DNA of 64,000 bases, taken from an uncultured bacterium. Its GTDB lineage: Bacteria; Sysuimicrobiota; Sysuimicrobiia; Sysuimicrobiales; Sysuimicrobiaceae. Below, piece by piece: positions 1,347 to 29,566 of this stretch. The notes below the pieces were generated by a model, which saw only the letters and a list, made by a program, of their open reading frames with translations, did not search any database and was not told the origin of the DNA. The translations under genes and the position numbers were made by a program. The stretch is taken from positions 119,072-183,071 of the forward strand of contig CAYTFH010000001.1 in assembly GCA_964437095.1 (NCBI GenBank), written 5' to 3'. Every line of letters begins with the position of its first letter. The stretch's first letter is position 1.

Positions 1347-2417
1347 TCAGCCTCCCCTCCACGTGGGCGGGGCGCTCACGGGCGCGGGGCAGTTCACCAC
1401 GAACAGCTCGCCCTTGGTGTCCGGCGTCCCCGGCCACCGCTTGAGCCGCCCCGCCTGCTCCTCCGCCACGATCTCCCGCTCGCTGCGCAGGACCCGGGGC
1501 CGGGCGCCGGCCTCCCACGTGAAGGTGTAGTGGTCCCAGAAGGGGCTCCAGATGGCGTCGCCGGGGTTGGAGTCGAACACGGACGGCTGGAAGCCCATGG
1601 GCCCCGGCCCCTTGATCCCGTTCCCGAACACCAGGATCTTCGCGGTCGCCCCTGCCTTGGTCAGGGCCGCCGTCTTGGGTGAGGCCGCGACCTTCATCAT
1701 GGGCGCCATGGGGGCCGCGGAGGTGTCCGTGACGATGTACCAGTGGTTGGGGAAGCACTGGTGCAGTTTGAACGTCACCTCGCGGCGGTCCACCTTGGGG
1801 TCCTCCAACAGCTGTCCGTCCCCCAGGTACTCGGTGCGCCGCCGGTCCACGGCCAACTGCCCGTCCGGCCACCGCACCATGGGGTAGTTCACCACCACCG
1901 GCGTGGACTCCACCTCCACCTGGCCCGCGCTCTGCGCGTCCCGTACCTGCTCCGCGGACCGGAGCAGCCGCGGGGAGGTCTTCCAGGTCACCCAGTGGAC
2001 CCGGTACGCGGGCGTGAAGTCGTCCCGCCCCGGGACGGTGCTGACCACCGGCAGCTGGCCCGGAGCGCCGCCTCGGAACAGATAGTAGTCCACGGTGGCG
2101 TCCTGGCGCACCGCCAAGGCCAGCTTCGGCACGAACACCAGCCCGCGCGCCTGGGCGAAGGCTTGGTCCGAGGCGTCGGTGCGGATGTGGTAGGCGAGCT
2201 TCCCGTCGAAGAAGACCGGGTGCAGGCGGAACGTCACGAAGCCGAACAGCCCCCTCCACCCCTGGGGCCGGGTGGAGAACCGCAACACGTCGCCCACGTT
2301 CTTGCGGGCTGCGGGTGCACCCCACGCCGCACCCCCTGGGAACCGGCCGCCCACGAGCGCAGCCCCGGCCAGGGCGGACCACCGCAGGAACTCCCGGCGG
2401 GTCATCCCGTACTCCAT
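1347..2417 (-). CDS. Tat-signal (twin-arginine) secreted hypothetical protein; alternative upstream in-frame GTG start at 2639
   Basis: MEYGMTRREFLRWSALAGAALVGG is a classic RR leader, preceded by a strong SD (GGGAGGAGGGGAG). The ORF continues in frame upstream to a second SD+GTG at 2639 (see finding). C-terminal domain not recognised. Confidence 0.5.
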   Translation of the reverse strand: MEYGMTRREFLRWSALAGAALVGGRFPGGAAWGAPAARKNVGDVLRFSTRPQGWRGLFGFVTFRLHPVFFDGKLAYHIRTDASDQAFAQARGLVFVPKLALAVRQDATVDYYLFRGGAPGQLPVVSTVPGRDDFTPAYRVHWVTWKTSPRLLRSAEQVRDAQSAGQVEVESTPVVVNYPMVRWPDGQLAVDRRRTEYLGDGQLLEDPKVDRREVTFKLHQCFPNHWYIVTDTSAAPMAPMMKVAASPKTAALTKAGATAKILVFGNGIKGPGPMGFQPSVFDSNPGDAIWSPFWDHYTFTWEAGARPRVLRSEREIVAEEQAGRLKRWPGTPDTKGELFVVNCPAPVSAPPTWRGG

Positions 2418-2792
2418 GGCTCCCCTCCTCCCTTCGCGCACTCGCCCGCGGTCACGCACCTTCGGTCGGTCCGCTCCGGCGTGCGCCTGCCGGTGCTCCT
2501 CGAGCCCTCGTGCGGTGAAAAACTGCACGCCGCAGCAGGACCCCACGGGTTCCCGCACGGCTCCGTGGGCTTCCACGTCGTGCCGGATCAGCTCCTCTTC
2601 GCTGGCGAACTCCCTGCCGCAGCACTGCCACTTGGCCACGTTCTCCCCTCCTTTCGGTCCACGGCTGCGCCACCCGCGTGTCGGGACGGAAGACCGCCCA
2701 CCAGGAGCCCCCAACACCACCACGGACAGCCAGAGAACCCGCATCCCCTCCTCCACCTTGCCCCGTCTCCCGCCACCGGTCCGTGAGGGACC

Positions 2793-3224
2793 TCACACAC
2801 CGGCCACCCACCCGTAGACCCAGGCCACCACCAACCCGTACACCGCGTGTCCCAGCACGATCCCCATGGCGGGGGCGGGGCCGGTGGGGAGTTCAGGGCG
2901 TCGCGGGTGCATGGCCCGCATGGCGGGCATGACGGCCGCCGCCAGGATCCCGTGCACCACGCCGAAGACCAAGCCCCAGCCCGGAGAGACCGTGCCGACG
3001 CCAGAGCGCCACAGCAACCCGTACACCGCCGTGAACACCACCCCCATCCCGAAGTGCAGCACCCCGCCCAGGGTCCTGGCCGCGGCGCCCTCGGGGACGA
3101 ACATGGTCCCCAGCGTCCCGAGCATGTCCATCCGCGGCATCCCCATGCTCGGTCCGAGGGCCATGAGGAGCGTCATGACCCCGGTCCCCACCAACCCGGC
3201 ACCCACCACCCCGCTCCAGGACAT
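2793..3224 (-). CDS. hypothetical integral membrane protein
   Basis: Strong SD (GGAGGTCGGGG) + ATG at 3224; about four predicted TM helices rich in G/A/V/L. Confidence 0.45.
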   Translation of the reverse strand: MSWSGVVGAGLVGTGVMTLLMALGPSMGMPRMDMLGTLGTMFVPEGAAARTLGGVLHFGMGVVFTAVYGLLWRSGVGTVSPGWGLVFGVVHGILAAAVMPAMRAMHPRRPELPTGPAPAMGIVLGHAVYGLVVAWVYGWVAGV

Positions 3225-3348
3225 CCCCGACCTCCGCGTACGTTGTCCAGGCCCCATGCTCGCCGCCCCGCTGTCCCGCGTCTGTAAGGTCCCTCACCGA
3301 AAGTCCCGGCGGCCCCCTCTAACCTCGGAGAGGAGGAGGTGATACGGG

Positions 3349-3708
3349 ATGCCGGATTCGAAGTACGTGGTGTTCGTGCACGCGGGGCCTCAGGAGCTGG
3401 CGCGGGCGCTCCACGCATTGCTGTACGCGCAGGAGCTGCAGCGGTCGGGAATCCCCGCCAAGGTGGTGTTCGACGGCGCCGGGACGGTGTGGTTGCGGGA
3501 GTTCAGCAACCCCGAGCACAAGTACCACGCCGTGTTCCGGCAGGTTCTGGACGCCGGACTCGTGGACGCCGCCTGCGCTTACTGCGCCAACGCCTTCGGC
3601 GTCGCGGAGGCGGTGCGGGCCGCAGGCGTCCCCCTGGTGGGCACCGCAGAAGGGCACCCGAGCCTCGCCGCGTACCTGCGGGACGGCTGGACGCCCATCA
3701 CGCTATAA
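3349..3708 (+). CDS. DsrE/DsrF(YchN)-like sulfur-relay family protein
   Basis: SD GAGGAGGAGGTGA + ATG. Sequence MPDSKYVVFVHAGP...DAACAYCANAF is typical of DsrE-like small proteins. Confidence 0.6.
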   Translation: MPDSKYVVFVHAGPQELARALHALLYAQELQRSGIPAKVVFDGAGTVWLREFSNPEHKYHAVFRQVLDAGLVDAACAYCANAFGVAEAVRAAGVPLVGTAEGHPSLAAYLRDGWTPITL

Positions 3709-3741
3709 TTCCCGCCAGCAGCGTTCGTGGGAGGTGAGGGA

Positions 3742-4239
3742 GTGCCCGGTCCGGGCGCGTACGAGGTTACCTTCGAAGCAGAGGCACACGCCCTTGAGGG
3801 GATGCGCAAGCTGGCGGTGGTCCGGGTCCGCCGGACCGGGGGCGCTGCGGAAGCGTACACCCTCGTCTGCGACGAGGGCGCGCACCTCGGGGGGGAAGGC
3901 AGCGCCCCCACCCCCCTCACCTACTTCGTGGCCGGCGTGGCCTTCTGAATCCTGACCCAGCTCTCGCGGTGCGCGAGAGACCTCAAGGTACCGCTGGAGG
4001 ACGCCCGGGCGCAGGTGGTGGCACGGTTCCGCCGCACCGGGTCCGTCCTGCAGGGCACCGCCCGGGGGGAGTGCGCGGGCTTCGAGATCCGGGTCCGGCT
4101 GCGGTCTGAGGCCAAGCCCGAGGCCGTGCGTCGGGTGCTGCAACTCGCCCACGCCACCTGCTACACGGAGGCGTGCCTGCGCTCGGAGGTCCCCTTGGCG
4201 GTCCACCACGAGCTCAACGGGGAACCCCTGGCCCTGTAG
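3742..4239 (+). CDS. OsmC/Ohr-family peroxiredoxin-like protein with in-frame TGA (3946-3948) at the peroxidatic-Cys position; candidate selenoprotein
   Basis: Two same-frame ORFs (3727-3948 and 4015-4239) form one OsmC-like protein: ...TYFVAGVAF[TGA]ILTQLSRCARD... and ...LAHATCYTEAC... SD GGAGGTGA + GTG at 3742. Confidence 0.5.
3961..3979 (+). promoter_or_regulatory. perfect 8-bp stem/3-nt loop hairpin 12 nt downstream of the in-frame TGA (bacterial SECIS-like)
   Basis: CTCTCGCG-GTG-CGCGAGAG, read directly from the sequence; the apical loop contains G and U. Confidence 0.4.
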
Positions 4240-5106: not shown

Positions 5107-5295
5107 TTAGCAGAAGGGACACCCGCCCCGGCGGGCTACGGCGGTTCCTTCCTCGGTGCCCGCCTCGGGGACATCCGCTTCAGGGGTCGCAGGCTCGCTC
5201 GACCCCGCCCGGGCGGCGAGGAGGAGGGCCAGGAGCTTCCCCCCGCAGCACAGCGCGATCACCCCCACGATCCCCAAACTGGTAAGCCAGTCCAT
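5107..5295 (-). CDS. small membrane protein with vicinal Cys pair in its TM helix and C-terminal CPFC (MerT/MerF-like?)
   Basis: Strong SD GGAGGTGAGAACG + ATG. MDWLTSLGIVGVIALCCGGKLLALLL...GGCPFC. Confidence 0.4.
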   Translation of the reverse strand: MDWLTSLGIVGVIALCCGGKLLALLLAARAGSSEPATPEADVPEAGTEEGTAVARRGGCPFC

Positions 5296-5309
5296 CGTTC
5301 TCACCTCCC

Positions 5310-6410
<1,101 letters not shown>

Positions 6411-6466
6411 TTATGCGGGGGTTCCGGTGCCCGGTTGGACGGTGTATCCTCGAGGAGGGGTAAGTC

Positions 6467-7043
6467 ATGGAGTCTGGCACCGGGCCGCCTGCACCGGAAG
6501 GGTCCCGCCACACCCGAGAGTTCCTCCAGCGGATGATCGAAGAGCACAGCGCGGCCCTGTACCGGGCAGCCGACCACATGACCGGTCGGGCCGACGACGC
6601 CGAGGACCTCGTCCAGAAGACGTTCATCCGGGCCTGGCGCTTCCTCCACAGCTTCGATCCAGCCGGCAACGCCCGCCGTTGGCTCTTGAGGATCCTGCTG
6701 AACCTGTACGTCGACTCCCTGCGTCGCGGGAAGCGCCGGCCCGAGAGCCTCGACCTATCGGAGGGAAATCCGTAGATGACCTGTACCTTTACCGTCATAT
6801 CGTGAGCTCCCAGGACCTGGAGACCTCCGGCGATCCCGCTGTGGTGTTCTTCGACCGTCTGGTGGGCGATGAGATCCAGGCCGCCCTGCGCGGATTGCCC
6901 ACAGACTACCGGAAGGTGCTCCTCCTCTTTGCGAGGGGTTTTCCTACCACGAGATCGCCGAGATCCTGAACCTCCCCATCGGGACGGTGATAAGCCGCTC
7001 CCATCGGACCAGGACCCTCCTGCAGAAGAGCCTGTGGGAGTAC
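6467..7043 (+). CDS. ECF (sigma-70 family) sigma factor interrupted by two -1 frameshifts (near 6770 and 6940)
   Basis: Region 2 (DLVQKTFIRAWRF) in frame A; region 3/4.1 (LPTDYRKVLLLFA) in frame B; region 4.2 (EGFSYHEIAEILNLPIGTV) in frame C. Both shifts fall at short homopolymers. Good SD GGAGGAGGGG + ATG. Confidence 0.55.
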
Positions 7044-7088
7044 TGCGTCCGCACCGGCCGCTGCCGACCCCAGCCCACGCCTGCCGTC

Positions 7089-7307
7089 GTGCCCGCCCCG
7101 TGTGCGGAGGCGTGCCGACACCTGTACGGCTACCTGGACCCAGCCAGCCTCACCGCGGTCGAGCAACACCTCGCCGTGTGCCGCCGGTGCTGCGACCGGC
7201 TGGAGTTCTACCGGCGTCTGGAAGCCACCATCCGTGAAACCCTCCAGCGCACCCGCCTCCCCCGTTCCCTGCGGTCCCGCCTGAACCGCCTGGCCCAGCT
7301 CCTCTGA
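7089..7307 (+). CDS. anti-sigma factor, ZAS zinc-finger (HxxxCxxC) domain; reads in frame with sigma region 4.2
   Basis: CAEACRHLYGYLDPASLTAVEQHLAVCRRCCDRLEF is the zf-HC2 anti-sigma signature. No stop separates it from the sigma frame-C segment; GTG 7089 is a possible independent start. Confidence 0.45.
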   Translation: MPAPCAEACRHLYGYLDPASLTAVEQHLAVCRRCCDRLEFYRRLEATIRETLQRTRLPRSLRSRLNRLAQLL

Positions 7308-7421
7308 GGGGACGACCCTTGCCCCCCGGGAGTCGCGGAGTAGTTAACATACGGTTTTCCGTAATTTGACCTTGGAAACGGGTGCAGCCGGGGGTCCCGG
7401 GCGCCGGGCCGGGGGTGGACC

Positions 7422-8438
7422 GTGGAGTGGATCTGGTGGGCTGTCCTGCTCGTCCTCGCGAACCTCCCCATCGCCACGCTCCTCCTGGACCGCATCTTCG
7501 GCGTTCCTGCACCCCAGCTCATCCGGTTCGGCTGGCTGCCCGGCGCGTTCGTACTGGCTGGGGTTTTGGCTTGGTCCGCCGCCACACGTCAGCCGGTTCT
7601 CGACCTCGTGGTGTGGGGCGCGGTGGGCGGGTTCGTCGCCACGGTGGCTTTGGACGTCGTCCGGTTCACGGGGCTCCATGTCTTCCGCGCGTTTCCCGTG
7701 GACATGCCTCAGGTCTTCGGCGTGCTCGCCCTCGGTCTGGGTCCGCACCTGCAAAAGAACGTGATCGCCATGGTGCGCCACCTCGCCGGCCAGGACCCTG
7801 AAGCACAGCAGGAGCTCCTGGCAGAGCGCCTGGTGGGCCTTGGGCGGCTCCCTGAGCCCGTGCGGGTGGCCGTCATCCGTGCCATGCGCAAGGGCCTCGC
7901 ATCTTTCCCTGAACCCCAGCGCCACGAGCTCATGGCCACCCAGATGTCCCTCCTCACAACGCTCCCGTCGGAGGCCCGCCAGACGGTGATGCGGGTCATG
8001 GACCTGGCCATGGCCGACCGCGCCCAACCCGTGTACCAGCAGCCCCGCGGCATGCCCAAGGTCCCCATGTACACCGCGAGGGAGCTGCTGGCGGAGGCCC
8101 TGCCCCAGACTCTCGCCGAAGCGGGCGTCCCTCGCGCCGCCGTCCTGTTGGCGGGGTACGGCTGGCACCTCCTGAACGGCTTGGGGTTCGGGGTGACGTA
8201 CACCCTGCTCTTCGGGCATGGGACCTGGGCGCTGGCGCTGGCCTGGGGGCTATTTATCTGGGCGGGGATGATGGTCACCATGCCCATCATGATGCCCACC
8301 ATCCGGTTCCCCATGCCGCGCTTCCTGGTGGTCCTGTTTATCGCCCACGTGGTCATGGCCGGCCCCATCGGGTACTTCGCGTTCCTCGTATCGCGGGAGG
8401 CCCACCGCGCGAGCCTGGTGGGGAGGGTGCTCCCGTGA
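7422..8438 (+). CDS. membrane protein with internal ~19-aa PExxR..M repeats (repeat-family member A)
   Basis: N- and C-terminal TM helices; central LPEPVRVAVIRAMRKGLASF / PEPQRHELMATQMSLLTTL / PSEARQTVMRVMDLAMADRA repeats. Confidence 0.55.
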   Translation: MEWIWWAVLLVLANLPIATLLLDRIFGVPAPQLIRFGWLPGAFVLAGVLAWSAATRQPVLDLVVWGAVGGFVATVALDVVRFTGLHVFRAFPVDMPQVFGVLALGLGPHLQKNVIAMVRHLAGQDPEAQQELLAERLVGLGRLPEPVRVAVIRAMRKGLASFPEPQRHELMATQMSLLTTLPSEARQTVMRVMDLAMADRAQPVYQQPRGMPKVPMYTARELLAEALPQTLAEAGVPRAAVLLAGYGWHLLNGLGFGVTYTLLFGHGTWALALAWGLFIWAGMMVTMPIMMPTIRFPMPRFLVVLFIAHVVMAGPIGYFAFLVSREAHRASLVGRVLP

Positions 8439-8559
8439 AGCTCCTGCCCGGTCGGGGAGGCTCGTGCGCACGCGGGGCACAAGCCAAGCCGCCCCTGACG
8501 GCTTTGCCTCCCCGGCCGGCGCGTCTCGTGGAACGGGCCTGCGCTCGGAGGTGAGAACC

Positions 8560-9970
8560 ATGGCAACTGACCACGTTGTGCCAACGACCCGCGTGGGTCG
8601 GCCCCCGATCCTCCCGCCGGGTTTGTCGATCCTCGTGGGGTTCGCGGACGAGCTCCTGCTCGTGCTCGTGGCGTTGTGGCTGGCGCTCCTCGGCGCTTGG
8701 CTGGGGGCGGTCGTGAGTGGGGGTGGCGGTGGCCATCTGGGCCACGGTGACCACCATCATGCTCTGGCCGGTCGGCCGGCGGCTGGGTCGTCCTTACGTT
8801 TCGTACCGTACCGCCCTGTTCATCCTCGGGGTGCTCAGCATGGCCTACACCCCTGCCATCGGCTTCATCCTCCAGTCGGGTCTTCCGTACACCCCGAAGC
8901 TCATCCTGTGGCTGTTGCTCCCCCTGGACCTCACGGTGTTCGCCATCCTGCCGAGCCTGCGGGCGGCCATGGGCCGCCCCATCCGCATGTTCTTCCGGCC
9001 CGATCTCCTCTTCGGTGACGGCCGGGTCCTGTGCTGCGGGACCGTGGCGCTCCTGTTCGGGATCCGGTACCTCATCGGGCCGCACCCGCCCGAGGGTGTT
9101 CCCGTGGCCCCGCCCCGGTGGAACTGGTGGGGGATCGCCTTCGCCATGGCCTTCGGCTTCATCCCCCTGATCCCCCTCCGGGGGATGACCAAGCTCCTCA
9201 TGCGCACGGCGCGGCTCATCCGCGATGAGGGGTACGGCTGGTGGGGCGTCATCCTGAAGGAGACGTTCCTGGTGGTCACCATCCTGGGGATCGCCCTGGG
9301 GTTCCACCACGCGTTCAAGGGGTGGGTACCCTTCGATGCGCGGTTCTGGGAGGAAGCCCGCAAGGCCATCGAGCACCGCGGGGTGTGGCGGGGTCTCCTC
9401 CTCATGGCCTTCGGGTACGTCTGGCTCGTCTTCGTCCGGGGCGGCTACAAGATGCGCATCGGCGAGCCGTTCCTCCGCGAGACCGTCCTCCAGACGTGGA
9501 TCAAAGAACTGCTGTACGTGCCCGGCGTGGTCGCCCTCGTGCCCGGCGTGATGTTCCTCGTGGAGGAGCACTTCGGGCAGCTGAACCGTGGCGCCATGCT
9601 GGCGGTGGGTATCCCCTTCTTCCTGTGGGGTCTTGTCTGCGTCACCGCCTTCCGGGTCCTAGCCCAGGTCAACCAGCGCCGGGCCCTTGTCCAGCAGATG
9701 GCGGCGGTGGTCCTGCCGGCCCACAGCCCCGAGGTTCGGCGCAAGGTGCTCCGGAAGGTAATGGACGCCCTCGCCGGGATGCCCGGAGATCAGCGGCTGT
9801 TCTACATGCACGCCATGCAGGAGGCCATCGCCCAGTCGCCGGAGGAGGTGCGGGAGGTCATGACCGACGACCGGCTCGCGGTGCTCGCGGAGCTGCCGCC
9901 GGAGAAGCGGCAGGTGATCCTCGCGTCCATGGACCGGATCCTTCTGGATCCGGCTCCCTCGGGAGCTTGA
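8560..9970 (+). CDS. polytopic membrane protein with C-terminal ~19-aa repeats (repeat-family member B); apparent frameshift at the GGGGG run near 8717
   Basis: SD GGAGGTGA + ATG at 8560 gives a TM helix in frame 1. GC3 coding signal switches to frame 2 at about 8717. C-terminal repeats SPEVRRKVLRKVMDALAGM / PGDQRLFYMHAMQEAIAQS / PEEVREVMTDDRLAVLAEL / PPEKRQVILASMDRILLD. Confidence 0.5.
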
Positions 9971-9990
9971 TCACAAAAGAGGTGATCCAC

Positions 9991-10498
9991 ATGAAGGGAT
10001 GGGCATGGGTGAACGTAGTTCTGGGTGCGTGGCTCGTGGTGGCTCCCTGGATCCTCGGGTACGGGCGGGGGGGAGCCGTGGCCAACGACGTGGTCCTCGG
10101 CGTCGCGGTGGGTGTTGCGGCCATTGGCCGCGGCACTCGCCCGCATGCCGGACGCCCAGCGCAAGGTGATGATGGGCGAGCGGCTCCGGATGTTCGCCCG
10201 GATGCCGGAGGCGGAGCGCAAGCGGGCCATGGCCGCCATGATGGAGGGGGTCGCCGCTCTCCCGGACGACGACAGGAAGAAGCTCTTTCAGACCCGCTTC
10301 GAGGTCCTGGCGGAGCTCAGCGACTCGGAGCGCAAGAGCCTCATGAGCACCCACATGGCCATCGTGATGGAAAAAGGGATGGACATGATCCAGACGGAGA
10401 TGCGACTTACGGAGGCCGTTCTCCCTCAGCTGGCCCCGCCGGTCCGCCAGATGGTGCAGACGATGATGGAGAGCATGAGAACGGGCGGGATGCACTGA
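9991..10498 (+). CDS. SPW-repeat-like two-TM anchor fused (via apparent frameshift near 10125) to a Met-rich four-repeat domain (repeat-family member C)
   Basis: SD GAGGTGA + ATG. WVNVVLGAWLVVAPWILGY matches the SPW-repeat type. Downstream frame B encodes MPDAQRKVMMGERLRMFAR / MPEAERKRAMAAMMEGVAAL / PDDDRKKLFQTRFEVLAEL / SDSERKSLMSTHMAIVMEKGM ...MVQTMMESMRTGGMH, about 16% Met. Confidence 0.45.
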
Positions 10499-10541
10499 GC
10501 GCAGCCGGCGGGCGGGTCCCTGGCCGACGCTCCGAGGGGAA

Positions 10542-10952
10542 TCAGGAGCGGCGGCCGGCGCGCCGCCTGCCCTGCCGGGCGCCGCGGGCGCGCACCCTGC
10601 GGTCGATGATGGTGCAGCTGCGGATGCGGTCCGTGTGGTCCCGGAGCATGTCCGCGGCCATCTCCAGGATCCGGCGGACCCGCGGGTCGGTGACCCGGTA
10701 GTACACCCGCCGGCCCTCCCGACGGGCGGTGACGTACCCGCACCACCGTAGGCAGGCGAGGTGGCTCGACACGCGCCCCTGAGGGGAACCGGTGAGGGCC
10801 ACCAGCTCGCTCACGTTCTTCTCCTCGTCCAGCACCGCCTGCAGGATCCGCAGGCGCGTGGGATCCCCCAGCGCCCGGAAGAACTTGGCCATGAGGACCT
10901 CGTCCGACAGGTTCGGCAGCACGAAGGGCGGCGTCATCAGCTCGGCGCGCAT
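10542..10952 (-). CDS. ArsR/SmtB-family metalloregulator
   Basis: HTH KFFRALGDPTRLRILQAVL...VSELVALTGSPQGRVSSHLACLRWCGYV; SD GGAGGTG + ATG. Confidence 0.75.
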   Translation of the reverse strand: MRAELMTPPFVLPNLSDEVLMAKFFRALGDPTRLRILQAVLDEEKNVSELVALTGSPQGRVSSHLACLRWCGYVTARREGRRVYYRVTDPRVRRILEMAADMLRDHTDRIRSCTIIDRRVRARGARQGRRRAGRRS

Positions 10953-10970
10953 TCCTCACACCTCCAGGGT

Positions 10971-10984
10971 CGCACACGTGTTCA
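10971..10984 (-). promoter_or_regulatory. imperfect palindrome TGAACACGTGTGCG upstream of arsR (candidate operator)
   Basis: ACACGTGT core palindrome about 20 nt upstream of the arsR SD. Confidence 0.25.
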
Positions 10985-11031
10985 AGGATACGTGAGCATC
11001 TGGCGGCCCGCAAGCCCGCAGCGGCCGGGCT

Positions 11032-12762
11032 TCATCCGCCCTCCCGGGCGAGCCGGACCAAGCCGGCGGCCAGGCCGTCCAGCAAGGCCTCCCACGACGC
11101 CCGCGGCACCTCGTCCCACCCGGGGAGCTCACACCAGGCCCGCTCGCGGGACGGCTCCTTAGGCCTGCCCACCAGCACCGTGCGGTGCGCGGGGTGCTGG
11201 AAGCCTTCCACCACCACCACGTCCGGTGCGGCTACGCCGTCCGGCCGGCACAGGGCCACCGCCTCCTGCAACGTCAGCGGGTGGTCGGGGAAGGCCCGTA
11301 CCGCCGCCTCCGCGTCACCGGCCAGGACCACGGCGGCAGCACCCGCCCGAGCCGCCCGCTCGCTGTCGCTGCCCTCGCGGTCCAGCTGGAACCCGTGGGG
11401 GGCGTGCTTCACTACCCCCACCTTCAGGCCCAGATCCCTCAGCCTGCGCACCAGTCCCTCCACCACCGCGGTCTTGCCCGCCCCCGACTCTCCCACCACG
11501 CCCACCACCAGGGGTGCCGGACAGGCGTCCGGGATCTCCAGAGCGTCGCCGGTCTCTGGGTGGTCCAGCAGCAGCGCGGGGACCCCGGAACCGGCCCGCA
11601 GGTACGGCGTTTTCGACTTCAGCAACAGCAGGGCCTGCGCCCGCGCCAGGCTTTCCAGCACGGGGCCCGACAACGGCTGTACCGCCATCCGGGAGCCCGC
11701 GGGGGCCAACGCGGCCCACACGGCCCGCATGCGGTCCGTGGCCGGCAACTCCCCTTGCAGGGGAACGACCACCAGGGGCCGCACCACGTGCCGCCGCCCG
11801 CCCAAGCGCAGCAGCAGCGGCCGCACCAACAGGTGATAGGCCGCAAGACACGCGGCGGGGCTGCCGGACAGCGCCACCGCCCACCGCCTGCCTACCACAC
11901 CGGCGAAGAAGGGGCCGCCGGGCTTGAGGTCCACGCGCCCGGCCACCTTCTCCGCCCCCAGGTCCAGCCACACCCTGGGAACCCGGTCGTAACGTCCCAC
12001 GGAAACCGCCCCGGTGGTCAGCACCACGTCGTAAGGACCGGCCAGAGCCCTGTGAAAGGCGGCCCGCAAGGCCTCGGGACGGTCCGGCAGGGTGCCCCCG
12101 TAGTCCACCTCGCAGCCGGCCCGGGAAAGCTCCGCGGCCAACGCGAACGCGTTGGTGTTGAACACGCGGCCCGGCGCCGGCGGTCCAGGGGGCTCGGTGA
12201 GCTCGTCCCCCGTGCAGAACAGCACCATCCGCGGCCTGCGGTACACCCGGAACTCGGACACACCCCCTGCGATCAGGGCCGCCACCGCTCCGGGGCTGAC
12301 GGCCTCACCCTCGCGCACGATGATGGCGCCCTCGGGTAGCTCCTCGTCCGGGCGTACCACGTGCCGCTTTCGAGGCGGTGCCTCCGCCAGCACCACCGCC
12401 GCGCCCTCCCGCCGCACCAGCTCCAGCGGCAGGACGCGGTCTCCCCGGAGGGGCATGGCGGCACCCGTGCTGATGACCCACGCTTCGCCGCGGCCGGGCC
12501 CCGCAGCAGGCGGCTTGCCGGGCCGGCACTCCCCGGTGACCACCAGGCGCACCGGGTTTTCCGAGGACGCCTGCCGCACGTCCTCGTGGTGGCACACGTA
12601 GCCGTCCATGGCGGCCCGCGGGAACCCCGGGGCGTTGCGGGTACTACGCACTTCCTCCGCGCTCACCCGGCCGGCCGCCTGCGCGGAGGGGACCCACTCC
12701 ACACCCACCGGCCGCGCGCGCTCCAGCAGGCTCCTGAGGACCTGTTCCACCGGCTCCGCCAT
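11032..12762 (-). CDS. moeA: molybdopterin molybdotransferase MoeA fused to MobB
   Basis: MoeA N-terminal and central domains. C-terminus has the P-loop GVVGESGAGKT and VVKH of MobB. SD AAGGAGGG + ATG. Confidence 0.8.
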   Translation of the reverse strand: MAEPVEQVLRSLLERARPVGVEWVPSAQAAGRVSAEEVRSTRNAPGFPRAAMDGYVCHHEDVRQASSENPVRLVVTGECRPGKPPAAGPGRGEAWVISTGAAMPLRGDRVLPLELVRREGAAVVLAEAPPRKRHVVRPDEELPEGAIIVREGEAVSPGAVAALIAGGVSEFRVYRRPRMVLFCTGDELTEPPGPPAPGRVFNTNAFALAAELSRAGCEVDYGGTLPDRPEALRAAFHRALAGPYDVVLTTGAVSVGRYDRVPRVWLDLGAEKVAGRVDLKPGGPFFAGVVGRRWAVALSGSPAACLAAYHLLVRPLLLRLGGRRHVVRPLVVVPLQGELPATDRMRAVWAALAPAGSRMAVQPLSGPVLESLARAQALLLLKSKTPYLRAGSGVPALLLDHPETGDALEIPDACPAPLVVGVVGESGAGKTAVVEGLVRRLRDLGLKVGVVKHAPHGFQLDREGSDSERAARAGAAAVVLAGDAEAAVRAFPDHPLTLQEAVALCRPDGVAAPDVVVVEGFQHPAHRTVLVGRPKEPSRERAWCELPGWDEVPRASWEALLDGLAAGLVRLAREGG

Positions 12763-13482: not shown

Positions 13483-14187
13483 TCACCGGCCCGCCGCTGC
13501 TGCGTCCACCCACCACACCAGCACGCCGTCCCGCGGGCGGATCGCGCTGGCGGGACAGCTCAGGGCATCCACCGGCCCTTCCAGGGCCCGCCGCTTCTCC
13601 TCCCCAGCCACCAACACGTCTACCCGGCGCGCCCGGTTGAGCACGGGCAGGGTCAGGGTGAGGCGCACCGTGGGCGGGGTCCCGCCCCACACCGCCACCA
13701 CCCACCGCTCGGTCTCGAGGACCGCCGGCGAGCCGGGAAAGAGGGAGGCCACGTGCCCGTCCGCTCCCATCCCCAACAGGACCAGGTCGAAGGCGGGGTC
13801 GTCCGGCCCCAGCTCCGCCCGCAGGCGGTCTGCGTACGCGGCCGCCGCCTCATGGGGATCTGCCAGGTGAGTGGGCATGGGGTGGACGTTGTCCTGGGGG
13901 ATGGCGACCCGATCCAGGAGCGCGGTCCGCACCATGCGGTAGTTGCTGGCCGGGTGGTCCCGGTCCACGTACCGCTCGTCCCCCCACCACAGGCGGACCG
14001 CCCTCCACGGCACGTCCCGGTCTTGCGCCAGCAGTTCGTACATCCGCCTCGGCCTGCGGCCTCCGGCCAGGGCCACCACGCACCGGCCGGACCGCGCCAC
14101 GGCCTCCCGGATGCAGGCGGCGACGCTAGCCGCGGCGGCGGCGCTGAGGGTTTCCAGGTCCGGGTGGACCCGGACTTCCCCGGTCAC
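13483..14187 (-). CDS. pgl: 6-phosphogluconolactonase
   Basis: VALAGGRRP...WGDERYV...SNYRMVRTALLDRVAIP motifs; GTG overlaps the zwf stop (GTGA). Confidence 0.75.
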   Translation of the reverse strand: MTGEVRVHPDLETLSAAAAASVAACIREAVARSGRCVVALAGGRRPRRMYELLAQDRDVPWRAVRLWWGDERYVDRDHPASNYRMVRTALLDRVAIPQDNVHPMPTHLADPHEAAAAYADRLRAELGPDDPAFDLVLLGMGADGHVASLFPGSPAVLETERWVVAVWGGTPPTVRLTLTLPVLNRARRVDVLVAGEEKRRALEGPVDALSCPASAIRPRDGVLVWWVDAAAAGR

Positions 14188-15625
14188 GTGGTGAACCAGC
14201 TCCGGTGGTCGCGCCGCAGGAGCTCCCAGGCTTCTCCGGGACCCCAACTGCCCGCGGGGTACGGGTGGACCGGTGGTGGGTCCTCGAGCAGCCCAGCGTA
14301 CACGCGCCACGCCTCCTCCACCTCGTCCGCCCGCACGAACAAGGACGGGTCCCCCCACAGGACGTCCGGCAGAAGGGTGTCGTACGCGTCCGGGAGCACC
14401 CCGAAGGCCTGCCCATACCCGAAGTGCAGCCGCTCCGTGGTGAACCGAATCGGCTGACCGGGGTGCTTCACGGAGAAGTACAGGTCGAACCCCTCGTCCG
14501 GCTGGAGGGTTATGACCAGGGCGTTGGGGTCCAGAGAACAGCCGGGGCCGAAGAGGGCCACGGGCGCCGGCCGGAACACCACCACCACCTGGCTTCGCTG
14601 CTGCCCCATGCGCTTGCCCGTGCGCAGGTAGAAGGGCACCCCTTGCCACCTCCAGTTGGACACCTGCACCCGCAGGGCGACGAAGGTCTCGGTCTGGGAG
14701 CGGGCGCCGAGCTCCTCCGGGTACCCGGGGACGTCCCGCCCCTGGACCCGGCCGCGGCGGTACTGGCCGAACACCGCGTCCTCCCGCCGCACCGGGGCCA
14801 CGGACCGCAGCACCTTCACCTTCTCGTTCCGGATGGACTCGGCTTCGAAGCTCGCGGGCGGTTCCATGGCCACCAGGGTCAACAGCTGCGTCAGGTGGTT
14901 CTGCACCATGTCCCGGAGGGCGCCCACCTGGTCGTAGTACTCCAGCCGCCCTTCCACCCCGATGGTCTCCGCCACGGTGATCTGCACGTGGTCCACCCGG
15001 TCCCGGTTCCACAGGGACTCGAAGATGGGGTTGGCGAACCGGAAGGTGAGCAGGTTCTGCACCGTTTCCTTCCCGAGGTAGTGGTCGATGCGGTACACGT
15101 GTCCTTCGTCAAAGGAAGAGTGGACCAGGGCGTTCAGGTGGCGGGCGGAGGCGAGGTCCAGCCCGAAGGGCTTCTCCACCACGAGGCGGGTCCAGCCGGA
15201 ACTCCGGTTCAGGTCGCTGCGCCCCAACCCTTCCACTGCAGGGGCGACCGCGCGCGGGGGGGCGGCCAGGTAGAACACGCGGTGGGGCGGCAGGCCGAAC
15301 TGTTGCTCAGGCCTTCCACCCGGGCCCTCAGGGACTCGTAGTCCGCGGGGGTTCCTGGGCCGAGGGGGTGGAAGAACAGGCAGGCCTCACACCACGCCCG
15401 GAGCGCTTCGCAGGGGAGTCCAGCCTCCGCTAGGGCATCCCGCGCCCACGCCCGGAACCGTTCGTCGTCCCAGGGCGAGCGGGCGACCCCCACGACCACC
15501 TGGCGCCGCAGCGTCCCCTTGGCGCCCAGCCGCGCCAGAGCGGGGAGAAGCTTGCGGCGCATGAGGTCCCCGGTGGCCCCGAACACCACGAAGACGTGCG
15601 GCGGGATCTCAGCGCGCGTCGCCAC
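14184..15625 (-). CDS. zwf: glucose-6-phosphate 1-dehydrogenase, apparent frameshift near 15300-15340
   Basis: N-terminus VFVVFGATGDLMRRKLLPAL (15209-15625 frame). Remainder (FYLAAPP...RIDHYLGKE...) lies in the 14184-15278 frame. Confidence 0.7.
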
Positions 15626-16523
15626 GGCGCTTGAGGGGGTGCCCGCCGAACTGCGCCCGCATCACGGCCAGCAGCCGGTCCGCGTAGGACTCCAGGTCCC
15701 GGGAGCGGAGCCGCTGCAGCAGCGACAGGGTGATCACGGGCGCGGGCACGTCCAGATCCACGGCCTCCGCCACCGTCCACCGCCCCTCTCCGGAGTCCTC
15801 CACGTAGGGCGCCACGTCCGTCAAGTCCGGGTCCTGCTCCAACGCACGCGCGGTGAGGTCCAACAGCCAGGACCGGATGACGCTGCCGTGCCGCCACAGC
15901 TCTGCCACCTGGCGCAGGTCCAGACCGAACTCCCGCTTCCGCCGCAGGATGGCGAACCCCTCCGCGTACGCCTGCATGAGGCCGTACTCGACGCCGTTGT
16001 GCACCATCTTCACGAAGTGACCCGCGCCCACGGGCCCCACCCTCGCCCAGCCGCGGTCGGGCGCGGGGGCCAGGGCCTCCAACAGCGGCCTCAGGCGCTC
16101 CACCGCCGCGGGCGCACCCCCCACCATGAGGCAGTACCCGTTCTCCTCACCCCAGACCCCGCCGCTGGTGCCCACGTCCACCAGGTGGATGCCCTTCTCC
16201 CGCAGGGACTCGGCCCTGCGTAGTGTGTCCCGGTAGAAGGAGTTGCCGCCGTCCACCACCACGTCGCCCGGCGACAGGTGTGGCGCAAGCTCGTGGATGA
16301 CGCTGTCCACCGCTCCCGCGGGCACCATCAGCCACACCACCCGGGGGGCCGCCACACTCTTCGCCAGCTCTTCCAGAGAGGAGACCGCGCGCACCCCCGC
16401 CTGCTCCGCCCGACTCCGGGTCTCCTCCTGACGCGCGTACCCCAGCGCGCGGTGGCCGGCGCGCACCCAGCGCCGCGCCATCCCCCCTCCCATGCGGCCC
16501 AGTCCCACCAGCCCGACGTCCAC
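15609..16523 (-). CDS. gnd: 6-phosphogluconate dehydrogenase (short NAD-binding GndA/YqeC type)
   Basis: MDVGLVGLGRMGGGMARR Rossmann N-terminus; central ...MVHNGVEYGLMQAYAEGF... Confidence 0.75.
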   Translation of the reverse strand: MDVGLVGLGRMGGGMARRWVRAGHRALGYARQEETRSRAEQAGVRAVSSLEELAKSVAAPRVVWLMVPAGAVDSVIHELAPHLSPGDVVVDGGNSFYRDTLRRAESLREKGIHLVDVGTSGGVWGEENGYCLMVGGAPAAVERLRPLLEALAPAPDRGWARVGPVGAGHFVKMVHNGVEYGLMQAYAEGFAILRRKREFGLDLRQVAELWRHGSVIRSWLLDLTARALEQDPDLTDVAPYVEDSGEGRWTVAEAVDLDVPAPVITLSLLQRLRSRDLESYADRLLAVMRAQFGGHPLKRRGDAR

Positions 16524-22674: not shown

Positions 22675-22684
22675 GGCTAGACCA

Positions 22685-22721
22685 CCCCAACAATCGCTCA
22701 AGCGATCTTTGGGGACCCCGG
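22685..22721. repeat. 37-nt palindromic repeat element, copy 2 (intergenic hemD-sirC)
   Basis: CCCCAACAATCGC-TCAA-GCGATCTTTGGGGACCCCGG; near-identical to the element inside the FMN reductase gene. Confidence 0.6.
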
Positions 22722-22756
22722 TCCCTTCAGCCGCCAGGGTCTTCCCGCACACGCTC

Positions 22757-28754: not shown

Positions 28755-29086
28755 GCGCGTCAAGAGGGGAGGCGTCGGTCCGCGAAAGCACTTCAGCCCG
28801 CGGACCGCACAGCCCGGGCCCAGTCCCGCAGCGCGGCCAGCAACTCCCGCACCCGGGCGCGGGTGGCCTCGTCCACCAGGCGCCCCTGCGCGTCGAACTT
28901 GTCCCGGGCGTGGGTAACCAGGACCTCCGGACGGTGCAGCTGCCGGGCCTCCAGCGACGCCAGCACCTGCCGCAGGTGCAGCTGCGCCCGCAGCGTGCCC
29001 CAGGCCCCCATCGTTCGGAGCACATCCGGCCATCCCCCGCGCCCACGGGGACCGGCGTCGGACGTCGTACGACTTCTCCCTGCAAA

Positions 29087-29136
29087 CCGGGGTCCCCAAA
29101 AATCGCGCCAGCGATTTTTGGGGCGCTCTAGCGCCC
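29087..29136. repeat. palindromic repeat element, copy 1 (inside the FMN reductase gene)
   Basis: CCGGGGTCCCCAAAAATCGC-GCCA-GCGATTTTTGGGG plus adjacent GGGCGCTCTAGCGCCC palindrome; AT-rich core. Confidence 0.6.
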
Positions 29137-29566
29137 ATCACCGCCACGGGCTTGCCCCGGAAGGGGTTGTCCCCCGCGGGGCGGGTGGCCCAGTCCAGCG
29201 CGTTCTTCAGCACCCCCGGGAAGGACCAGTTGTACTCCGGGGTGACCACCAGCACCGCGTCCGCGTCGCGGATTTCGCGCTTGAAGGCCACCACCGCCTC
29301 CGGGAGCCCTCGCTGCTCCACGTCCCCGTCGTACAGGGGGATGCCCCTCAGGTCGAAGGCCACCACCTCCACGTCTTCGGGGGCCACCTCCGCCGCCGCC
29401 CGCAGCAAGGCGCGGTTGTAGGATCCCTCCCGCAGGCTGCCCGCGAACCCCAAGATCTTCACTGATCCCTCACGCACGCGTGCCCCCTTCCGATTCGGGT
29501 TTACGGCGCAGCAGTGTACGCGGCTCCGCCGGGCGCGTCAAACCCTCTTGACAATTCCACGAGCTC

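Follow-up and report, generated by a model that had tools for sequence, protein, structure and literature searches.

A probable pseudogene of an ECF sigma factor with a C-terminal ZAS domain in an uncultured member of the Sysuimicrobiaceae

In the SigR-RsrA system of Streptomyces coelicolor and the SigH-RshA systems of Mycobacterium and Corynebacterium (ECF12-type), a sigma factor of the extracytoplasmic function (ECF) type and its soluble, redox-sensitive zinc-binding anti-sigma (ZAS) factor are encoded by two genes and made as two polypeptides. The zinc-loaded ZAS domain binds sigma regions 2 and 4 (sigma2 and sigma4) and keeps them from binding RNA polymerase, and oxidation of the ligand cysteines frees the sigma factor (PMC8999054). 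Here we describe a locus at positions 6467-7307 of a 64,000-nucleotide (nt) stretch of DNA, hereafter the window, from an uncultured bacterium of the Sysuimicrobiaceae (GenBank assembly GCA_964437095.1, contig CAYTFH010000001.1, positions 119,072 to 183,071). The locus is probably a pseudogene, and its intact relatives encode a SigH-like sigma factor and an RsrA-like ZAS domain in a single open reading frame (ORF).

C-terminal extensions are the second most common mode of ECF regulation (PMC7826278, PMC8999054). Fused zinc-finger or ZAS extensions have been predicted in ECF48, ECF52 (SCO4117), ECF53 and some members of ECF270 (PMC8999054, PMC7826278). These groups share with the family described here a ZAS-type zinc finger that follows the sigma core on the same polypeptide and is predicted to be a built-in anti-sigma factor. 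The ECF48, ECF52 and ECF53 extensions reach up to 400 residues, with one or two transmembrane helices, extracytoplasmic domains and predicted proteolytic release (PMC8999054, PMC7826278), whereas the fused family, set against those descriptions, ends right after a ZAS domain of about 75 residues and has no membrane segment. CorE-type and other ECFs with short Cys-rich extensions (ECF238, ECF287 and ECF288) also do without a separate anti-sigma gene, and the role proposed for their Cys-rich C-terminus is sensing of metal or of the redox state (PMC7826278). Their tails, however, are metal-activated stretches of about 20 residues and not RsrA-homologous anti-sigma domains.

The fused family is closest to SigR-RsrA and SigH-RshA in its SigH-like sigma part, in its RsrA-homologous Cys...His-x3-Cys-x2-Cys domain, and in being soluble, without a transmembrane segment after the ZAS domain. 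It differs from them in joining both parts in one ORF through a Cys-containing linker of about 20 residues; in addition, the host of the window is Armatimonadota-like and not an actinobacterium, and the window copy is probably dead. As judged from sequence, the short, soluble form and the RsrA-like domain on a SigH-like core set the fused family apart. Previous discussion of ZAS extensions fused to a sigma core has centered on actinobacterial groups anchored in the membrane, and has been based on sequence only.

Structure and lesions of the sigma/ZAS locus

Three-frame translation of 6467-7310 revealed an ECF sigma factor gene spread across three successive reading frames of the forward strand (Table 1). 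The frame of segment 1, if continued, ends at TAG 6773-6775 and gives a 102-aa ORF. Segment 2 reads SVDDLYLYRH...AALRGLPTDYRKVLLLFA (SVDDLYLY...RKVLLLFA). Segment 3, with region 4.2 and the ZAS domain (EGFSYHEIAEIL...HLAVCRRCC...), reads EGFSYHEIAEILNLPIGTV..., then a short Cys-containing linker, then CAEACRHLYGYLD...HLAVCRRCC..., and ends at TGA 7305-7307. The H-x3-C-x2-C motif of the ZAS domain spans 7167-7190, with two Cys codons upstream (7101-7103 and 7113-7115), and the translation contained no stop codon in any frame between region 4.2 and this motif. An intact relative used as a tblastn query aligned in three collinear pieces in three frames, with segment 1 being 93% identical to residues 1-101 of the intact protein P0123 and the second piece corresponding to its residues 98-159.

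The translation joined over the two frame switches, hereafter the stitched protein, was used as query in domain and homology searches. It matched Pfam Sigma70_r2 (E 1e-16, 60.6 bits against a cut-off of 24) and Sigma70_r4_2 (E 5e-12, 45.6 bits against 25.7), as well as the NCBIfam sigma70-ECF model TIGR02937 (77.8 bits against 42.9). Once the three frames are joined, the protein has regions 2 and 4 without region 1.1 or region 3, as is typical of ECF (group 4) sigma factors. An uninterrupted reading frame is found in the relatives and not in the window copy, which carries two 1-nt deletions. The best specific NCBIfam model was SigH_actino (TIGR02947), whose score of 117.3 bits lies far under the cut-off of 251.55, so that the protein is not a SigH equivalog. 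The ZAS ligand columns are conserved across alignments A1 and A5, being invariant or nearly so.

Lesions were located by comparison with contigs L061 and L062, which carry an intact relative at about 95% DNA identity, and with the further relative L055, which also served as outgroup (about 83% identical to the window over the stretch aligned by blastn; 89% mean column identity in a MAFFT alignment). Each frame switch is one missing base that a -1 shift would correct. In the ancestor, the site of frameshift 1 (GGGAGAAT) was not a homopolymer and that of frameshift 2 was only a GG dinucleotide, and neither loss is the shortening of a long homopolymer. Frameshift 2 also abolishes the otherwise invariant Glu of LLFAEGFSY. 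An earlier note on this stretch had proposed a sigma gene split over three frames, the third of which stays open into an HxxxCxxC ZAS domain, and translation, Pfam and tblastn all bear this out. The two -1-correctable switches that it described are likewise real, although its placing of them at homopolymers holds only loosely, since site 1 was not one ancestrally. The second switch, which it put at 6938-6946, is in fact a loss at 6933/6934, about 5 nt upstream and outside the GGGG/TTTT run.

Within the ZAS domain, a 12-nt in-frame deletion that the earlier note had missed takes out four residues (YLD[RDLD]P) that are present in 17/17 aligned homologs. Because of this deletion, the window C-terminus scores below the cut-off for zf-HC2 (PF13490; 17.0 bits against 22.2, with profile positions 16-34 only), which is passed by the intact relatives (33.2 bits for the P0123 C-terminus, and 27.0, 28.5 and 32.5 bits for others).

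Sixteen substitutions are specific to the window lineage, all of them within 6510-7047 (the first 580 nt). The replacements include E51K in the conserved LVQETF, Y36D, M176I and, in the helix of region 4.2, L179S. When changes were polarized with L055 as outgroup, the window lineage had 14.5 nonsynonymous and 0.5 synonymous changes (15 of the 16 substitutions, counted over aligned codons), and the L061 lineage had 4 and 3, respectively, in the same gene. The pairwise ratio of nonsynonymous to synonymous substitution rates (dN/dS) is 1.52 for the sigma/ZAS gene, with differences of 11/6/7 across codon positions. For comparison, dN/dS is 0.16-0.33 in the three genes downstream, 0.20 in an upstream merA-like fragment, and 0.03-0.32 in five genes of the dcw cluster compared with another relative. 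The window branch has a substitution density (15/819 sites, or 0.018) not far from the value of 0.014 for synonymous divergence on the sister branch, which is what is expected for a gene without constraint since the split. The relaxed constraint is confined to the sigma/ZAS gene and to the window lineage.

Decay, sequencing error and other explanations

We consider it probable that the gene at 6467-7307, which originally encoded an ECF sigma factor and a C-terminal ZAS domain in one polypeptide, has become a true pseudogene. Two independent single-base deletions broke the frame in this lineage, and the 12-nt deletion, a putative slippage event, shortened the ZAS domain. In addition, otherwise conserved positions have been replaced, and a deletion of about 1.8 kb comes within 61 nt of the start codon. 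The gene is presumably no longer expressed as a functional regulator, and frame-disrupting lesions in two of the downstream genes, which still bear the mark of past purifying selection, would be later consequences of the same loss of use.

The main rival concerns the single-base events alone. It holds that the frameshifts and the nearby single-base deletions are assembly consensus errors, and that the real gene is an intact, rather divergent sigma-ZAS allele. We regard this as unlikely. The lack of an ancestral homopolymer at site 1, and of anything longer than GG at site 2, argues against it. So does a Logan assembly of run SRR11582147, made by k-mer assembly from raw reads, in which a 9,850-nt contig (L059/L060; 5,021 nt fetched, 0 mismatches) is 100% identical to window positions 6418-11438, every lesion included. 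The single-base indels are also clustered, with five between 6767 and 9979 (3.2 kb), and random consensus errors at that rate would give about 10 indels across the 7,269 nt of the dcw cluster that were compared directly with a relative; 130 mismatches and one gap were found there.

In order to gauge assembly-wide indel noise, Pfam was run on all coding segments of the window. Only two broken genes were found outside 5.3-10.5 kb, namely zwf and a flavin mononucleotide (FMN) reductase gene. Between 29.7 and 64 kb, a region that includes the whole dcw cluster from a penicillin-binding protein gene to ftsZ, all genes gave full-length or nearly full-length matches and none was split between frames, leaving about 30 kb of essential genes unbroken. 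Because the breaks fall in dispensable genes and essential genes are spared, the pattern is that of real mutations filtered by selection. Consensus error would, moreover, leave unexplained the 16 lineage-specific substitutions in the same gene, its 12-nt repeat deletion, and several lesions elsewhere in the window that are not single-base indels: the truncation of the merA-like gene and the nonsense codon within it, a 251-nt deletion, the deletion of about 1.8 kb, and a 127-nt insertion.

Several observations nevertheless weigh against decay as we describe it. The window and the Logan assembly may share their underlying reads, and the agreement between them is therefore supportive and not decisive. 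All six single-base events are deletions, mostly in G-rich context, with G being the base lost in four of the five at this locus and in the putative event in zwf; a deletion-biased sequencing technology could yield such a pattern. The downstream genes, including those broken by 1-nt deletions alone, appear to be under normal purifying selection (dN/dS 0.33), which means that their frameshifts are either very recent or errors. There is not one substitution in the last 260 nt of the sigma/ZAS gene (7048-7307, the ZAS domain), where the 12-nt deletion is the only change. The ratio of 14.5:0.5 exceeds the neutral expectation of about 3:1 (binomial P 0.012-0.075), an excess that simple decay explains incompletely. 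Finally, cis inhibition in the intact family, discussed below, is a proposed mechanism. Two pattern scans of metagenome contigs for frameshifted and intact alleles at sites 1 and 2 returned nothing, and these scans also missed the Joint Genome Institute contig L055, which carries an intact site 2.

The nonsynonymous excess is also the starting point for a second alternative, that the gene was inactivated or remodeled adaptively, or is in a reversible, phase-variable on/off state, instead of decaying passively. Several hits at functionally central positions, and the redundancy of a promoter-proximal deletion combined with two frameshifts, would fit adaptive loss as well. However, the counts are small, differences are spread evenly across codon positions as they are without selection, and passive decay after a first inactivating hit also yields multiple redundant lesions. 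Reversible phase variation is supported by long repeat tracts, and neither frameshift site is one. Adaptive or switchable loss is thus quite improbable in our estimation.

The idea that ribosomes read the gene by programmed -1 frameshifting, twice in succession, can be rejected as having next to no chance of being right: X_XXY_YYZ heptamers do occur at both sites (6763-6769, G_GGA_AAU; 6936-6942, G_GGU_UUU), their phase is correct, and slipping back by one base at each of them would bring the ribosome into the next frame, but the heptamers were made by the deletions, occur only in the window and lack conservation (all relatives, including the one about 95% identical, are uninterrupted there), the 80 nt downstream of each site are no more structured than shuffled sequence (z 0.01 and -0.78), a slip at site 2 would place Arg where Glu is invariant, and two unstimulated slips in series would presumably have a negligible yield.

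On the preferred reading of a pseudogene, the three ORF fragments at 6467-7307 should be annotated as one pseudogene and not as sigma and anti-sigma genes, and any "repair" of supposed sequencing errors in them should have the support of reads. The locus would then be a natural case of a regulator and its adjacent genes decaying jointly while essential genes on the same contig stay intact.

The intact fused family

A search of a large protein collection with the stitched protein returned single ORFs of 246-333 aa (P0001-P0017) that cover 87-99% of the query. Sigma70_r2, Sigma70_r4_2 and zf-HC2 are present in most of these, and the alignment extends over their full length, with the Cys and His ligands invariant or nearly so. 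Exact-sequence look-up placed the intact 284-aa protein P0123, from a strain about 95% identical in DNA, in the same 90% cluster as the 102-aa and 106-aa fragments of the window. Two sequencing runs yielded contigs that encode P0123, and these agree at every position (100% identity) across an 813-nt overlap. A profile search of 1.8 billion cluster representatives gave at least 13 full-length sigma-plus-ZAS matches among the best 150 (50% identity clusters). When genome contigs were scanned with the stitched protein, only distant relatives (at most 45% identity) were recovered. The aligned members are mostly 262-333 aa long, and most of them, including the window copy and its closest relatives, stop 40-45 residues past the CxxC. 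By length, most therefore lack a long transmembrane or extracytoplasmic part after the zinc finger, although no dedicated transmembrane predictor was run. The exceptions are P0273, which is 556 aa long, and P0012, whose C-terminus is extended by about 45 residues that are hydrophobic and rich in Cys.

Compared with structures in the PDB, the family profile matched M. tuberculosis SigH (5zx2, E 1e-52) over the sigma part and S. coelicolor RsrA (5frf_A, E 1.8e-8), with profile positions 208-279 aligned to RsrA residues 9-80. The ancestral gene is thus a SigH/SigR-like ECF sigma factor joined to an RsrA-like ZAS domain in one ORF of about 280 aa. The earlier note had offered, as one option, that correction of the gene gives a sigma factor to whose C-terminus a ZAS domain is fused, and the single ORFs of the orthologs agree with this; no ortholog examined has a stop between sigma and ZAS, and a separate anti-sigma gene was likewise not seen in them. 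Its suggestion of a decaying regulator is also upheld, by the two frameshifts, the 12-nt deletion, the nonsynonymous excess, the upstream 1.8-kb deletion and the damaged neighbors. What finds no support is its remaining option, a sigma/anti-sigma pair laden with sequencing errors, since no relative has such a gene pair and error is unlikely: the lesions recur in the Logan assembly, are clustered, and are accompanied by substitutions and large deletions, which a sequencing method prone to indels would not generate.

It is hypothesized that the intact protein is a switch of one component. In cis, sigma2 and sigma4 would be kept by the ZAS domain in a closed state, incompetent for RNA polymerase, and thiol oxidation or zinc loss would free both from the tethered ZAS domain. 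An intramolecular switch is proposed because the inhibitor is tethered to the sigma core. In an AlphaFold model of P0001 (pLDDT 72.8, pTM 0.52), the helices after the sigma part form a four-helix ZAS domain only. The sigma2/sigma4 arrangement of this model is compact, like that of the anti-sigma-bound SigW-RsiW complex (5wuq, TM-score 0.78-0.80), and differs from the extended SigH bound to RNA polymerase (TM-score 0.36-0.42). The model agrees, weakly, with cis inhibition.

Tentatively, the intact relatives may be an uncharacterized class of soluble, self-contained redox or thiol-stress sigma factors, a proposal that we think somewhat less likely to be right than wrong. Such proteins would combine a SigH/SigR-type ECF with an RsrA-type ZAS domain, be inhibited in cis, and be switched by zinc loss or disulfide formation without a partner or proteolysis. 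Their conserved neighbors (two unannotated membrane proteins and an SPW/DUF3106 protein) would be the regulon, and the window would record collapse of the module after loss of the regulator. If the cis switch is true, the intact family would offer a minimal one-protein redox switch and potentially an orthogonal, self-regulated sigma part. The window copy itself would be an ordinary pseudogene; the fused family is real.

Neighboring genes and other broken genes of the window

Coordinates of the locus, its lesions and its neighbors are collected in Table 1.

Table 1. Features of the sigma/ZAS locus and adjacent genes, in window positions
Feature	Position	Strand	Description
Segment 1 of the probable pseudogene	6467..6766	+	N-terminus and sigma region 2; frame of ATG 6467; Pfam Sigma70_r2 at residues 23-91
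Segment 2 of the probable pseudogene	6767..6933	+	sigma2-sigma4 linker and region 4.1; frame of 6469, codons in phase with 6769
Segment 3 of the probable pseudogene	6934..7307	+	region 4.2 helix-turn-helix, Cys-containing linker and ZAS domain; frame of 6468; TGA 7305-7307
Frameshift 1	6766..6767	+	one G missing: relatives GGGA[G]AATCC, window GGGAAATCC; DNA alignment to L061, L062 and L055
Frameshift 2	6933..6934	+	one G missing: relatives TTTGC[G]GAGGGG, window TTTGCGAGGGG; DNA alignment to relatives
12-nt in-frame deletion	7131..7132	+	one unit of the direct repeat ACCTGGACC(GCG)ACCTGGACC lost, inside the ZAS domain
ZAS metal-ligand motif	7101..7193	+	Cys 7101-7103 and 7113-7115; His 7167-7169; Cys 7179-7181, 7188-7190 and 7191-7193
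Junction of ~1.78-kb deletion	6404..6406		positions ~551-2326 of L061 absent; sigma start codon follows after 61 nt
merA-like pyridine-nucleotide disulfide oxidoreductase remnant	5310..6404	-	N-terminus deleted; in-frame stop 5559-5561 in the dimerization domain
338-aa membrane protein gene	7422..8438	+	intact; 3-nt in-frame deletion at 7766 relative to L062; dN/dS 0.33
Membrane protein gene (469 aa in L062, 465 aa in L056)	8560..9970	+	one T (8704) and one G (8719) deleted
SPW/DUF3106-type gene (253 aa in L062)	9988..10498	+	251-nt out-of-frame deletion at 10124/10125

By blastn, positions 1-550 of L061 correspond to window 5855-6404 and positions 2327-3329 to window 6406-7394. The DNA between them, which the window lacks, holds in L061 a GH130 gene, an ORF of 79 aa and the merA-like gene's 5' part. 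Position 6418, where the Logan contig starts, is 13 nt from the 6405 junction, and deleted and undeleted alleles, or a repeat, could coexist in the sample. In the merA-like remnant, the Pyr_redox_2 match begins at profile position 77, and Pyr_redox_dim is matched at 2-41 before the stop and at 40-109 after it. The remnant ends in ...KLSCCAG, and next to it (5107-5331, reverse strand) is a small ORF whose product, a membrane peptide, contains a CC pair and has CPFC at its C-terminus. The synonymous divergence of the remnant from the relative (dS 0.27) far exceeds that of neighboring genes (0.02-0.09), which suggests that it has a separate history, for example one of horizontal transfer.

The 338-aa membrane protein gene is the first gene 3' of the sigma gene in both the window and L062. 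In the gene that follows, about 50 N-terminal codons are now out of frame, and the repaired gene has a dN/dS of 0.33. The SPW/DUF3106-type gene has in addition lost one G from its Shine-Dalgarno region at 9979. In L056, a contig of a more distant relative, these genes are again found close to the sigma-ZAS gene, which suggests a functional module, and because they travel with the sigma-ZAS gene in distant relatives, the three are its candidate regulon. A scan of 6250-7450 for sigma-70-type promoters found nothing, and a search by eye and regular expression upstream of the sigma gene gave no convincing SigR-type GGAAT-N18-GTT motif. The three downstream genes share a repeated helical motif, (L/M)P-x-x-x-R-x(6-8)-M, for example LPEPVRVAVIRAM and MPDAQRKVMMGERLRMF, and they have no Pfam family except for SPW/DUF3106 on the third.

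The zwf gene (glucose-6-phosphate dehydrogenase; 14184-15649, reverse strand) is split over two frames with the break near 15296-15308 (~15300). G6PD_N profile positions 1-98 lie in one ORF, and positions 104-183 and G6PD_C lie in the next. One base is apparently missing from GGCCTG[G]AGCAA, and the flanking genes, 6-phosphogluconate dehydrogenase-like and pgl, look intact. Contig L064, from a relative identified by its prolyl-tRNA synthetase (P0128), ends short of zwf.

The NADPH-dependent FMN reductase gene, on the reverse strand, is interrupted by 127 nt (29004-29130, within the region 29004-29138) comprising an element of about 119 nt; being broken by an insertion, it is not a case of an indel. 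Within the element, CCCCAAAAATCGC..GCGATTTTTGGGG (29094-29123) forms a perfect hairpin, and on either side of the element lie 8-bp near-duplicates, ATGGGCGC and ATGGGGGC, that resemble a target duplication. Removal of the 127 nt gives a complete FMN reductase ORF. A 47-nt piece that is 85% identical to the element lies in an intergenic region at 22676-22722. The insert looks like a small mobile repeat similar to miniature inverted-repeat transposable elements or repetitive extragenic palindromes.

At 3343-4239 on the forward strand, three consecutive stop-to-stop ORFs in the same frame (3343-3708, 3709-3948 and 3949-4239) have coding-like composition. An OsmC-like Pfam match extends over the second and third of these (residues 185-288 of a concatenated test protein), and this region may be another gene with an in-frame stop.

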